Below, piece after piece: positions 55,670 to 59,332 of a DNA stretch of 64,000 nt. The stretch is from positions 6,870-70,869 of the forward strand of contig CAYXSX010000001.1 in NCBI GenBank assembly GCA_964467925.1. Reading direction: 5' to 3'. The notes beneath the pieces were generated by a model, which had not been told where the DNA came from, did no database searches, and saw nothing but the letters and a program-made list of their open reading frames with translations. Numbering within the stretch: position 1 is the stretch's first letter; each line of letters begins with the position of its first letter. The DNA is from an uncultured Pseudobdellovibrionaceae bacterium (GTDB lineage: Bacteria; Pseudomonadota; Alphaproteobacteria; Micavibrionales; Micavibrionaceae). The position numbers and the translations under genes were made by a program.

Positions 55670-56080
55670 TTACGTTTCCAGAAATTGTTCAAATTCGTTT
55701 TTGACCTTTTCCGGTAACCGCACCGGCTTTAAGGTTTTACTATCTACGCATACGATAACGACCTGCATGTCACAAATGACCTCGCCGTCGCGCTCCAGGC
55801 ATTGATGCATGATGAAACTAGTATTTTTCAGGGCGGAAATCGAGGTCTTTAATGAACATAAATCATCTAAATGCGCGGTCTTAAGATAATCGATTTCGAC
55901 ATGGCGCACTACGAAAATCATTCCCAGTTCTTTTGAAAGCGTGGAATTTTCATGACCCAAGCTGCGCAAGAACTCGGTGCGGCCACGCTCGGCGAATTTC
56001 AGGTAATTAGCATGGTACACGACGCCGCCGGCATCGGTATCCTCGTAATATATGCGTACGGGAAGGGTGTGGGTGGTCAT
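55670..56080 (-). CDS. ybgC: Tol-Pal-associated acyl-CoA thioesterase YbgC
   Basis: Hot-dog fold with N-terminal [19 protein letters not shown]. Confidence 0.9.
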
Positions 56081-57111
56081 TCGTCAAACAAATTTTCTTG
56101 AGAATTCACTTTAACTTCGATCCCTAAATATTTGAAACCTTTAGAAGAAATACATCTGCCGCGAGGGGTTCTTTGCACCAATCCCTGCTGCATCAAATAA
56201 GGCTCTATCACGTCTTCGATCATATCGCGTTGCTCCGATAACGCGGCGGCGAGGGTTTCGACACCCACGGGCCCGCCGCCGTAATTTTCAGCGATACAGG
56301 CCATGTAACGCCGGTCCATCGAATCGAGGCCGCTGGCATCGACATCAAGACGGCGCAGGGCCTCATCGACTTTTTCTTTTGTGATCTCGCCCGATCCGGA
56401 TGAGAAATCACGAACACGCCTTGTCAAACGCCCGGCGATACGGGGAGTTCCCCGCGAGCGTTTTGCCACTTCAAGCGCGCCCTCTTCGCTGAGGTTCATT
56501 TTCAAAATTCCGGCGCTGCGCTTGACGATAAGAGCGAGCTCCGCATCTTCGTAAAACTCGAGCCGCAAGGGAATACCGAAACGATCACGCAAGGGGTTGG
56601 TCAAAAGGCCGGAACGCGTGGTTGCACCCACAAGCGTAAAGGGCACGAGGTCGATCTGGACAGAGCGGGCCGCAGGCCCCTCCCCGATAATCAGGTCGAG
56701 CTTGCGGTCCTCCATGGCCGGATACAGGATTTCCTCCACCGCCGGATTGAGGCGGTGAATTTCATCAATAAAGAGAACGTCATTCGGCTCCAGATTGGTC
56801 AGCAGAGCGGCCAGATCGCCGGACTTCGCGATAACGGGGCCTGAAGTGGCGCGGAAACCGACGCCGAGTTCCTTGGCGACAATCTGCGCTAAGGTGGTTT
56901 TACCAAGGCCGGGCGGGCCGAAAAGCAGGACGTGATCCATTGCCTCGCCGCGGGACCGGGCGGCCTCCACGAAAACACGCAAATTCGCGCGCAAACCCTC
57001 CTGCCCGATAAAGGCATCAAGCGTATCAGGGCGCAGAGGGTTTTCCTCCACCCCCTCGAATTCATGAGGTTCGCGATCAAGGTCGGTGTTTTTCATTGGC
57101 TCAATACTCAT
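56077..57111 (-). CDS. ruvB: Holliday junction branch migration helicase RuvB
   Basis: Walker [10 protein letters not shown], Walker B LFIDEIH and the sensor region. Confidence 0.97.
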
Positions 57112-57728
57112 GCACTTAGCTCCTTGAGCGCGGCGCGGATAATATCTTGCAAATTATCATTGGCCCTTGCTTTCGCCGCCATGACGGCCTGAAACGCCTG
57201 CGCGCGCGGGTAACCGAGATTGATGAGGGCGGAGACGGCGTCCTGATCGACGCTGCCCGCCTCCTCATTTCCGGCGGCGATGTCCTTGTACGAAACCGGA
57301 GCGGCAGCACCCTGCCCCATGGCAAGGCTTCCGGCCTTGTCTTTAAGCTCGGTCACAATGCGCACGGCCAGTTTGGGTCCGACGCCATCGGCCTGACGGA
57401 TCGCGTTCTGATCCTGTGAGGCGATAATCATCGGCAGCTTATCCGCCGGGCACACGGCCAGAATAGCCAGCCCGGCCTTCGCGCCCACCCCCTGCACGGA
57501 TGTAAGAAGTTTAAACCATTGCTGCTCGGCGGCGTCGGCAAAACCGTAAAGTGTGATCGCATCTTCGCGCACCTGCGTTTCGATCAAAAGACTGGCCGGG
57601 TCGCCCTTTTGCCCGATGCGGCCCAACGTCCGGCGGCTGGCATGCACCAGATAGCCCACCCCGCCGACATCGAGTATCAGATGCCCGTCCGCGAAAGAAT
57701 CAATAATGCCGGAAAGTTTGCCAATCAT
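57108..57728 (-). CDS. ruvA: Holliday junction DNA helicase RuvA
   Basis: MIGKLSG start and HhH motifs ([31 protein letters not shown]). Confidence 0.95.
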
Positions 57729-57755
57729 TTGTGTCTTATGATAAACGATTTCCCC

Positions 57756-58559
57756 ATGATGTTAAGTACTGAGTTCAATCCGACTGCAGATATTCAAAAG
57801 ATTTTGAAGGAAGCCCCCTTTTGCACCAGAAATTCCTTTAGAGTATTGTTGGCACAAGCTGACTGGACACATGAGCGGCAGACAAGAATAATCCATCTTT
57901 CGGGCGATGGAAAATGGGCTATCAAGATTTTTTCCGCCGCACAGCGATATCATGAGGGAGAATTTGCTCGGTTTTGTCAACAAGCCCCCTCTGCGATTGC
58001 GTCGCCGCATATCGTAAAAGTTCCATACATTGGCCGTCTTCAGGGCGGCGATTTCTTTATGGTAATGGAAGCATTGGAAGCTCTGGACGCGCTTCATCGT
58101 AGATCCAGCCTGCACAAAACCGTTAGAGATATCCAAACAGCATATGGCGATGAGGTTTATGATTCAAAAAGCCAAAAGTATAAAACGCCGTCCACTTCGG
58201 AACGGCGCGACATTTTAGAACAGTTGGACAGCAACCATCCTGCGCTCATGGAGGCTTTTCGCGCTATATTACGGCATGCCGCCATGCAATTTTTTCACAA
58301 TAGATACGGGCCGCGGAAATGTGTAATGCCGTATCTGGATTTAAAATTAGACAACGTTATGAAACGTAAAAACGAAAACGGTTCTTACGACCTGGTCTTC
58401 ATAGATCAGTTTTTTGGCGGCGGCATCCAAATACTCGCCCCTTTCGTACAGGAAACCTGGAAGATTTTCGGCATTGAACTTGACGATATCTGGAACAATC
58501 CTCCCCCTTTAATAGTGCAGGCACGGCAAAACAGGTTTTTACCTGAACCTGCTTATTGA
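57756..58559 (+). CDS. Orphan protein with protein-kinase-like motifs (267 aa)
   Basis: Kinase-like order of motifs: SGDGKWAIKIF (beta3 Lys), HEGEF (alphaC Glu), FFMVMEAL (hinge), YLDLKLDNVM (catalytic loop D-x-K-x-x-N), VFIDQFFGG (DFG-like). AT-rich with several AGA/TTA/ATA codons. Opposite strand to the ruv genes. Confidence 0.6.
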   Translation: MMLSTEFNPTADIQKILKEAPFCTRNSFRVLLAQADWTHERQTRIIHLSGDGKWAIKIFSAAQRYHEGEFARFCQQAPSAIASPHIVKVPYIGRLQGGDFFMVMEALEALDALHRRSSLHKTVRDIQTAYGDEVYDSKSQKYKTPSTSERRDILEQLDSNHPALMEAFRAILRHAAMQFFHNRYGPRKCVMPYLDLKLDNVMKRKNENGSYDLVFIDQFFGGGIQILAPFVQETWKIFGIELDDIWNNPPPLIVQARQNRFLPEPAY

Positions 58560-59017
58560 TGATGCGCATGGGTAATGGCCACGGCGAGCGCATCCGCCTC
58601 GTCTTCGCTGGGGCGGCCGGAGGCGGGAAGCAGAGTTTTAATCATCATGCCGATTTGTTCCTTGCCCGCATGGCCCGTGCCGACGATGGATTTTTTGACC
58701 TTGTTGGCAGAATATTCCCCCACTGCAAGTCCGTAAAGCGCCGGAACACTAAGAACCACGCCGCGCGCCTGCCCCAGTTTCAAGGCAGATGCCGGATTCT
58801 GGTTGACGAAAGTTTCCTCCACCGCCGCGCTATCGGGATTGTGCAGTTTAATTACATCCGCAAGTCCGGCGTGCAGCGCGGCAAGGCGCGCAGGCAAAGG
58901 GTCCGCAGCGTTTGTTTTGACCAGCCCGCACGCCACGAATTGCAGCCTGCTCCCTTGTGAAATAATTATCCCCCAGCCGGTTTTTTGCAGGCCGGGATCA
59001 ATGCCGAGAATCTTCAT
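58553..59017 (-). CDS. ruvC: Crossover junction endodeoxyribonuclease RuvC
   Basis: MKILGIDPGL start with catalytic acidic residues (EETFVN, DEADALAVAI). Confidence 0.95.
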   Translation of the reverse strand: MKILGIDPGLQKTGWGIIISQGSRLQFVACGLVKTNAADPLPARLAALHAGLADVIKLHNPDSAAVEETFVNQNPASALKLGQARGVVLSVPALYGLAVGEYSANKVKKSIVGTGHAGKEQIGMMIKTLLPASGRPSEDEADALAVAITHAHHQ

Positions 59018-59074: not shown

Positions 59075-59332
59075 ATGACAAAGAAAATTTCAGTCGGCGA
59101 TCTTGTTCTGATTAAAGCTAGGTTTAGAGACCACAAATCTAGCTCACAGCGTCCGGATCTTAATTTTAGATTAGCTTTTAAAGTTATTGCCACCGACGAA
59201 GAAGGCATCTTGCACATTGCCAACCCCGGGGAAGTTTTATTACAGCAGGACTCTAAAGAACCCATTTCTGCAGGCTTAGGGGCAGTAGAAAAACTAGATT
59301 TTCAAGGTTTAGAAATTATAGGCCACGCCTAA
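59075..59332 (+). CDS. Hypothetical AT-rich orphan (85 aa)
   Basis: Clean ORF in a visibly AT-rich spacer between ruvC and yebC. Rare codons (AGA, TTA, CTA, ATA). No recognisable domain. Confidence 0.45.
   Translation: MTKKISVGDLVLIKARFRDHKSSSQRPDLNFRLAFKVIATDEEGILHIANPGEVLLQQDSKEPISAGLGAVEKLDFQGLEIIGHA

Follow-up and report, generated by a model that had tools for sequence, protein, structure and literature searches.

A divergent kinase-like gene of Micavibrionaceae, encoded antisense between ruvC and ruvA and remotely related to T7-type phage protein kinases

The DNA analyzed here (the window) is a 64,000-nucleotide stretch of contig CAYXSX010000001.1 from an uncultured bacterium of the Micavibrionaceae, a family of obligate epibiotic predators. 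Between its ruvC and ruvA genes, an open reading frame (ORF) on the opposite (plus) strand at 57756-58559, designated gene X, is a genuine protein-coding gene, unannotated so far. Its 267-residue product (P0001, approximately 31 kDa) is predicted to have a bilobal protein-kinase-like fold and, on the evidence of sequence profiles, is a remote homologue of T7K-like kinases (T7K being gp0.7 of phage T7), of other phage kinases and of Hanks-type kinases. The explanation that best accounts for the findings as a whole, and to which we give somewhat better than even weight, is that X is a genuine gene for a minimal kinase that serves in biological conflict and that its position in the ruv locus is a matter of history. 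The assignment of X as a divergent minimal protein kinase draws on the ORF itself, its homologues, an AlphaFold (AF2) model, structural searches with Foldseek and profile alignments with hhalign.

Full-length homologues, together with a confidently predicted fold, establish X as a real gene. No significant match was found with X alone among Pfam, NCBIfam or PDB sequences, and a word-indexed homologue search with X as the single query likewise returned nothing. A phmmer scan of 1.84 billion representatives with X identified six proteins, i.e., four full-length relatives of 259-269 amino acids with 25-35% identity (P0003, P0004, P0005 and P0007), one domain inside a protein of 1433 amino acids (P0006) and one piece of 77 amino acids (P0002). 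Full-length homologues aligned over the entire frame of X with 24-35% identity. The 77-residue piece is identical to the C-terminus of X and is the sole public gene call at the locus, and full-length X is therefore unannotated. With profile A2, the family was detected in 7 of the 237 genomes searched from the same GTDB family, and with the broader profile A3 in 28 of the 320 searched from the order, all but one of these 28 being Micavibrionaceae. Outside the order, the family was present in three of 400 other Alphaproteobacteria, all with small genomes and one with five tandem copies. The family thus comprises roughly 25 or more members, nearly all from Micavibrionaceae. An earlier note on this DNA, made from the sequence without database searches, had described X as an orphan, which is correct insofar as X belongs to no Pfam or NCBIfam family and is mis-called in the genome, but not insofar as a family of about 25 members exists.

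The fold of X was modeled with far greater confidence from an alignment than from the sequence of X by itself. The predicted local distance difference test score (pLDDT) of the AF2 model rose from 41 for the single sequence to 86.3 with a 12-sequence alignment, for which the predicted template modelling score (pTM) was 0.85. In a Foldseek search of the PDB with this model, the top 50 matches were all of kinase fold, the best being APH(3')-IIIa (E 1.6e-4, probability 1.00), and the matches included APH(3')-Ia, APH(2''), FN3K, CDC7, RNase L, PknS, Abl, p38 and PINK1. The best matches in BFVD were small phage protein kinases (E 1e-5, TMq 0.43-0.49, TMt up to 0.66), and the top matches there, with probabilities up to 1.00, were dominated by protein kinases of phages and other viruses, including T7-like gp0.7 orthologues. 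Proteins of 221 and 387 amino acids, which may be the two Rhizobium phage RHph_I1_18 proteins of those lengths (QIG70573 and QIG70572), were also among these top matches.

Comparisons of sequence profiles pointed in the same direction. Alignment of profile A3 by hhalign gave E-values of 3.2e-7 with T7 gp0.7, 2.9e-7 with gp0.7 of Pantoea phage SK1, 1.7e-7 and 1.4e-10 with the 221- and 387-residue proteins, respectively, of Rhizobium phage RHph_I1_18 and 2.3e-8 with a canonical Hanks kinase, as opposed to 0.17-0.39 (probability 0.15-0.3%) with three unrelated controls. On T7 gp0.7, which has 359 residues, the match extends no farther than residue 253. PHROG 15752, which is annotated as T7 kinase, matched five of the 12 aligned members collinearly and in one register (best E 4.9e-5), PADLOC models of the PD-T4-6 kinase matched up to four of the 12, and the top PDB match by sequence profile A2 was the StkP kinase.

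The landmarks of a protein kinase could be located along X in their usual order, all on the plus strand. The motif WAIKIF (57915..57932), which represents strand beta3 and carries the putative ATP-anchoring residue Lys57, aligns to VIKV of T7 gp0.7 and AIKVL of a Hanks kinase. Strand beta5 and the hinge, with Glu105, are represented by FFMVMEAL (58053..58076), which aligns to FFMVMEFL of the canonical Hanks kinase and to the hinge of StkP. The segment YLDLKLDNVMKR (58332..58367) corresponds to the catalytic loop, with Asp195 as the putative base, Asn200 as a putative Mg ligand and Arg204, and aligns to HRDLKPDN of a Hanks kinase and FDMHSGNIMF of T7 gp0.7. Finally, VFIDQFF (58395..58415), with Asp217, is the equivalent of the DFG motif and aligns to IDFG of a Hanks kinase and to TDPV of T7 gp0.7, the latter containing the DPV motif (PMC13645617). 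The spacing D-x4-N-x16-D between the catalytic residues of X is that of active kinases. In the AF2 model, a helical insert of 90 residues separates the hinge from the catalytic loop, and the protein ends approximately 50 residues past the DFG equivalent. The five motifs on which the earlier note had based its description of the product as kinase-like are all present in the order given there; that description is borne out by the fold prediction, the Foldseek matches and the profiles, its landmarks mapping to the beta3 Lys, the hinge, the catalytic loop and the DFG equivalent, but the GDGK sequence that it included is not a conserved glycine loop.

Catalysis by X is suggested by the conservation of these residues among its nearest relatives. 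Thus, K57, D195, N200 and D217 are all kept in the X clade (nine sequences, 24-52% identity), which argues for catalysis. Judged from sequence, X is somewhat more probably an active protein kinase than an inactive one. As proposed here, X would be an ATP-dependent protein kinase in which K57 anchors ATP, D195 acts as catalytic base and N200 and D217 bind Mg, and it would operate without a regulatory activation segment and without the shut-off domain of T7K.

Several observations weigh against an active kinase with a role in conflict. In an alignment of 25 members of the wider family, the beta3 Lys was present in only 9 and was replaced by Arg or His in 14, while N200 was lost in 10 members and D217 in 9. 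The most conserved residues of the family, E105 and R204, are not the classical catalytic ones. The family lacks a glycine-rich loop, the consensus ahead of beta3 being L-x-SPD-x3, and the SGDGK sequence of X is not conserved. The DFG equivalent of X is DQF and not the DPV of T7K. Foldseek TM scores were modest, i.e., about 0.33 for the PDB and 0.43-0.49 for BFVD. No Pfam or NCBIfam model reached threshold, Pfam Pkinase (PF00069) giving no match at E<=1 for X or for any of the 12 members, and P0001 alone matched no PHROG family. Neither an obvious Shine-Dalgarno sequence nor an evident promoter was noted for X. No evident partner gene (none being fixed at the ruv site), secretion signal or recognizable targeting domain was found, and no signal peptide was evident at the N-terminus. 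Cultured Micavibrio has been reported to possess type I and type II secretion but not type III or type IV (PMC3189940), which weighs against injection of X into prey.

The residue losses in the wider family make many relatives of X look like pseudokinases, and X itself could have the kinase fold and yet be catalytically dead, acting in binding, in scaffolding or as a decoy rather than in phosphotransfer. Such a reading would accommodate the frequent replacement of the beta3 Lys, N200 and D217 among the 25 members in the face of the invariance of E105 and R204 (each 25 of 25) and of V214, the lack of a glycine-rich loop and the departure of the DFG equivalent of X from both DFG and DPV. It leaves the retention of four catalytic residues across the nine-sequence X clade difficult to understand unless catalysis is under selection, and it does not account for the D-x4-N-x16-D spacing typical of active kinases. 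We consider a dead X unlikely, though a reading to be taken seriously. Asp195 was present in 24 of the 25 aligned members. At the DFG position the X clade has D-[QML]-F, D-P occurs in 11 of the 25 members, and more basal members of the family have D-P-[FVLY]. As a whole, the family has features that textbook kinase chemistry does not explain.

The substrate of an active X might also be an antibiotic, a sugar or a metabolite rather than protein, if X were a phosphotransferase for small molecules, like APH enzymes, choline kinases or FN3K. The best PDB matches by Foldseek, i.e., APH(3')-IIIa, APH(3')-Ia, APH(2'') and FN3K, are enzymes of this kind, APH enzymes have a long helical insert between hinge and catalytic loop as X does, and the Pfam APH model (PF01636) gave a weak match to two of the 12 members (best E 0.007, below the gathering threshold), although none to X. 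Against these resemblances, profile comparisons favored protein kinases, namely T7 gp0.7, other phage kinases and a Hanks kinase, with E-values of 1e-7 to 1e-10, the phage protein kinases in BFVD scored above the APH matches, the Pfam APH matches fell far under threshold, and X has Y-L-D in place of the His that typically stands two residues before the catalytic Asp in APH and choline kinases. A small-molecule substrate is, on balance, quite improbable.

Some members of the family differ from X in their architecture or integrity. Tandem arrays of up to five copies were noted in two small-genome Alphaproteobacteria outside the order (G682:C5:772303-775000, represented by L118 and L120, and G556), and the copies in these arrays are shorter than X (195-230 amino acids) and end directly after the V-D-P motif. 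In P0006, from a Logan contig of sample ERR4592245, the X-type kinase domain occupies residues 687-884 of 1433 and is preceded by a zinc-protease-like HEVGH motif and followed by a Gly-rich segment, the protein being without Pfam matches. P0006 looks like a multi-domain effector. No similarity was found between its Gly-rich C-terminal part and the Gly-rich neighbor of X in L009. In the copy of G016 (OZ246000.1; L002:1471-2259), a single in-frame TGA stands in place of the Arg codon (CGA) of relatives, with similarity resuming beyond it, and the copy is thus either a pseudogene of recent origin or affected by an error of sequencing.

The frame of X is open from 57519, with the assigned ATG at 57756, an alternative in-frame ATG at 57738 and a TGA stop codon at 58557-58559. 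The flanking genes are on the minus strand. Thus, ruvA (57108..57728), identified from its ORF, from Pfam RuvA domains on the L090 orthologue and from 61-74% identity to relatives, is divergent from X, with 27 nucleotides between the two starts, whereas ruvC (58553..59017), identified from its ORF and from tblastn matches to relatives, is convergent with X, the 3' ends overlapping by 7 nucleotides (58553-58559) that include the ruvC stop codon (TAA, complement of 58553-58555). Farther on, ruvB (56077..57111), likewise recognized as an ORF, overlaps the ruvA stop. These positions agree with the earlier note, which had placed an opposite-strand ORF of 804 nucleotides at the same distance from ruvA and with the same overlap of ruvC. 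The expectation stated there that ruvC and ruvA are normally adjacent also holds, since in about 70 of 78 Micavibrionaceae loci with both genes the gap between them was 2-141 nucleotides, most often in the range of 26-140.

An antisense X between ruvC and ruvA was found in three genomes, i.e., that of the window, G073 (the same as L005 and L085; product P0004) and L090 (a Logan contig; product P0007), and the copies in G073 and L090 also overlap the 3' end of ruvC. Identities among the three copies were 25-30% as opposed to 61-70% for RuvA. The three hosts are scattered on a tree of RuvA and RuvB, their nearest neighbors are without X, and X is lacking from the closest relative by RuvAB (L010, 83% identity). 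Simple recent vertical inheritance of X at the ruv site was rejected, the hosts forming no clade on this tree. The ruvC frame of G073 (L005:2238-2750) extends 16 codons beyond the usual HAHH ending and overlaps X by 58 nucleotides, as if an insertion had displaced the original stop codon.

Other genes occupy the same gap elsewhere, one per lineage. In loci L043, L074, L082 and L088, they encode a sugar transferase (196 amino acids), a GIY-YIG protein (102 amino acids), a GNAT acetyltransferase-like protein (192 amino acids) or a LysE-type membrane protein (227 amino acids), the GIY-YIG protein being that of M. aeruginosavorus HCB189. From this varied cargo it follows that the ruvC-ruvA junction tolerates insertions and is a hot spot for them in Micavibrionaceae. 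Members of the family are also found next to other core genes. In a second clade, X is part of a cassette in the order leuC, X, a gene for a 154-residue protein, a gene for an HD protein (an HD_5 phosphohydrolase) and leuD (L111:4001-6092; L006; L002), while further members adjoin alaS, fba and other core genes. A comparison of two of these genomes, G106 and L111, revealed amino acid identities of 94% for LeuC and 87% for the HD protein as opposed to 46.5% for X, and nucleotide identity, which was 80-90% in the flanks, was just 49-65% within X. Thus, X evolves far faster than the genes that flank it.

Given such a fast rate of divergence, the low identity of the three copies at the ruv site (25-30%) fits an old insertion followed by many losses. 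No raised nucleotide identity was noted beside X between the window and L090, as a sign of recombination through the ruv flanks, and a search on either side of X for repeats and for the ends of mobile elements revealed only short chance matches and no mobility genes. The possibility that X and the HD gene of the leu-operon cassette had come as a block from a Rhizobium phage was rejected because the two HD proteins are unrelated.

The composition of X is clearly atypical. At 45.4%, the GC content of X is below that of the genome (52.5%) and those of ruvA, ruvB and ruvC (56-60%), which places X at the 2nd percentile among 827 long ORFs, and GC content at third codon positions is 45.9% as opposed to a mean of 61.8%. 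The codons AGA, TTA and ATA are over-used 2-5 times, AGA accounting for 32% of Arg codons (6% in the genome), TTA for 32% of Leu codons (6.7%) and ATA for 26% of Ile codons (11.6%), and an index similar to the codon adaptation index (CAI) is at the 3.8th percentile. The greater AT-richness of X relative to its neighbors and its use of codons that are rare elsewhere had been remarked on in the earlier note, and the measured values agree. The conclusion of foreign origin drawn there is not clearly supported, the same site and orientation being found in two distant relatives with 25-30% identity and the GC of the family tracking that of the host. Of 19 family members, 18 were more AT-rich than their own flanks, and the GC content of the family followed that of each host across a range of 0.37-0.62. 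As an explanation of the AT bias, a long-resident, weakly codon-adapted and fast-evolving gene is at least as good as a recent import.

Were X a recent single-gene import, of phage or other bacterial origin, that had broken up ruvCAB and was now decaying or neutral, its atypical GC content and codon usage, its absence from L010 and patchy distribution, and the fact that, beyond the family, phage kinases are the nearest relatives that can be recognized would all be accounted for. Such an import is nevertheless very doubtful. Copies only 25-30% identical to X occupy the same site in G073 and the same site, with the same orientation and a homologous junction, in L090; flanking repeats and mobility genes are lacking; the ruv flanks of X-bearing genomes show no excess similarity to each other; GC content tracks the host; and the frame of X is intact with its catalytic residues conserved. 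The notion that X is a chance open frame, the real feature being non-coding DNA or a 124-residue minus-strand ORF (57762-58136), might appeal to the public call of just the last 77 codons and to the lack of an evident ribosome-binding site, but it is effectively refuted already, and its probability is negligible, in view of homologues that align over the whole length in the frame of X, a confident fold model and the absence of any family match to the minus-strand ORF.

The position of X raises the question of how ruvAB is expressed. A promoter-like element for ruvA(B), TTAACA-16-TATCAT (57738..57765, minus strand), with a scan score of 10/12, overlaps the first codons of X and ends 9 nucleotides ahead of the ruvA ATG. 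Both hexamers and the 16-nucleotide spacing are identical in L090, while the spacer sequence is different; over approximately 85 nucleotides upstream of ruvA the window and L090 are about 75% identical, and similarity then falls to noise. These findings suggest that ruvAB is transcribed from a promoter of its own, which would lie within the first codons of X and give rise to a near-leaderless mRNA. Because of this conserved promoter-like element directly upstream of ruvA, antisense transcription through the full length of X is probably unnecessary. The position of X may accordingly be no more than historical, a junction that tolerates inserts having received the gene and ruvAB expression having been kept through a promoter in the 5' end of X.

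Other features of the region were also noted. A terminator-like hairpin within X (58185-58208, minus strand; nine pairs, six of them G-C, with a T-rich tail) lies 345 nucleotides downstream of the ruvC stop and may be where the ruvC transcript ends. The region has more terminator-like sites than expected, i.e., nine as opposed to 3.3. In the yebC-ruvC spacer, an AT-rich ORF of 85 codons (59075-59332, plus strand) has a CAI-like index at the 2nd percentile and is without homologue in 237 genomes of the family and without Pfam match. A link between this ORF and X was considered and dropped, G073 having a methyltransferase at the corresponding position; the ORF may be non-coding and is not linked to X elsewhere.

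The patchy, hypervariable, sometimes multi-copy and AT-biased nature of the family tentatively suggests a role in biological conflict as the most likely one for X, whereas a housekeeping function or a partnership with the Ruv proteins is improbable. The conflict could be one of phage defense or counter-defense inside the predator, or X could act on prey proteins. A bolder possibility, which we put forward as speculative and do not expect to hold, is that Micavibrionaceae and a few small-genome Alphaproteobacteria have domesticated and diversified a T7K-like kinase of broad specificity as a fast-evolving weapon or shield, directed at prey proteins during epibiotic attack or at their own phages. 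If so, the hypervariability, patchiness and tandem arrays of the family would be the signature of an arms race, and the family would be the first chromosomal, non-prophage lineage of T7K-type kinases in bacteria. A chromosomal family remotely related to T7K in obligate predators would extend this type of enzyme to conflicts of bacteria with bacteria or of bacteria with phages. The X family would also offer a tractable candidate for an unexplored side of Micavibrio biology. The locus itself appears to present a conserved repair operon that has absorbed a gene on the opposite strand and keeps working by means of a promoter inside the insert, and it illustrates that genes such as X are missed or truncated by standard gene callers.

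Among known kinases, the comparison of most consequence is with T7K, a hyperpromiscuous kinase that phosphorylates nearly the whole host proteome and disarms diverse bacterial defenses (Bartolec et al., Nature 2026, PMC13645617). In a survey that left out metagenome-assembled genomes and applied a hidden Markov model (HMM) criterion of E<=1e-10, nearly all reported homologues of T7K were from phages (PMC13645617). X and T7K, including its homologues in Autographiviridae, jumbophages and prophages, both consist of a minimal kinase domain without activation-segment regulation, and the X family aligns collinearly with T7K (hhalign, as above) from the beta3 Lys through the catalytic D-x4-N to the DFG equivalent. 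The D-P-[FVLY] shared by basal Micavibrionaceae members resembles the DPV motif, whereas X has DQF at this position. X lacks the C-terminal shut-off (SO)/DNA-binding domain, as do rare bacterial and jumbophage homologues of T7K. The two differ in that X is chromosomal, lying between core genes with no flanking phage genes or repeats and thus in neither phage nor prophage, and in that X carries at its N-terminus a helical segment that contains a conserved Trp and, at the fourth position after the catalytic Asn, has an invariant Arg. The X family is also too divergent for the HMM cutoff of the survey, its best match to PHROG 15752 being at E 4.9e-5, and the relationship is one of remote homology rather than membership.

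The best profile matches of the family were QIG70572 (387 amino acids) and QIG70573 (221 amino acids, annotated as 'putative protein kinase') of Rhizobium phage RHph_I1_18. These proteins share with the X family the motifs GW...SPD..VVK.F and NP.VPK, the hinge E.L, D....N[VI]M.R, which includes the family-specific Arg, and [VI]DP, and differ in that they are phage-encoded and in tandem, one of them having an extra N-terminal region of 190 amino acids. On the phage sequence (L124:41-3075), the genes for the 387- and 221-residue proteins are adjacent and are followed by an unrelated ORF and then by an HD phosphohydrolase gene on the opposite strand.

Likeness to Hanks-type kinases (StkP, PknS; PF00069), with StkP as the top PDB profile match and PknS among the Foldseek matches, is evident from the correspondence of AIKIF to AIKVL, FMVME to FMVME, LDLKLDN to HRDLKPDN and IDQF to IDFG (hhalign E 2.3e-8). 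X nevertheless lacks the GxGxxG loop, the Arg of HRD, the APE motif, the activation loop and C-lobe helices aF-aI of normal length, carries the 90-residue helical insert between hinge and catalytic loop and has no Pfam Pkinase match. Enzymes of the APH/FN3K type (PF01636) are the best structural matches in the PDB and are like X in size and in helical insertion, but sequence support is below threshold (E 0.007, two of 12 members) and motif details differ. The single-gene anti-phage kinase PD-T4-6 (PADLOC) is similar to the family in the N-lobe (best E 3e-4, up to four of 12 members), and both have the patchy distribution of accessory genes, but the match spans just 60-70 residues or so, X residues 44-112, for example, corresponding to positions 46-116 of a 443-position model (E 0.009), and PD-T4-6 proteins, with models of 327-443 positions, are longer than X. 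Taken together, these comparisons indicate that the X family consists of small, fast-evolving, remote T7K-like and Hanks-related minimal kinases that are almost confined to Micavibrionaceae.

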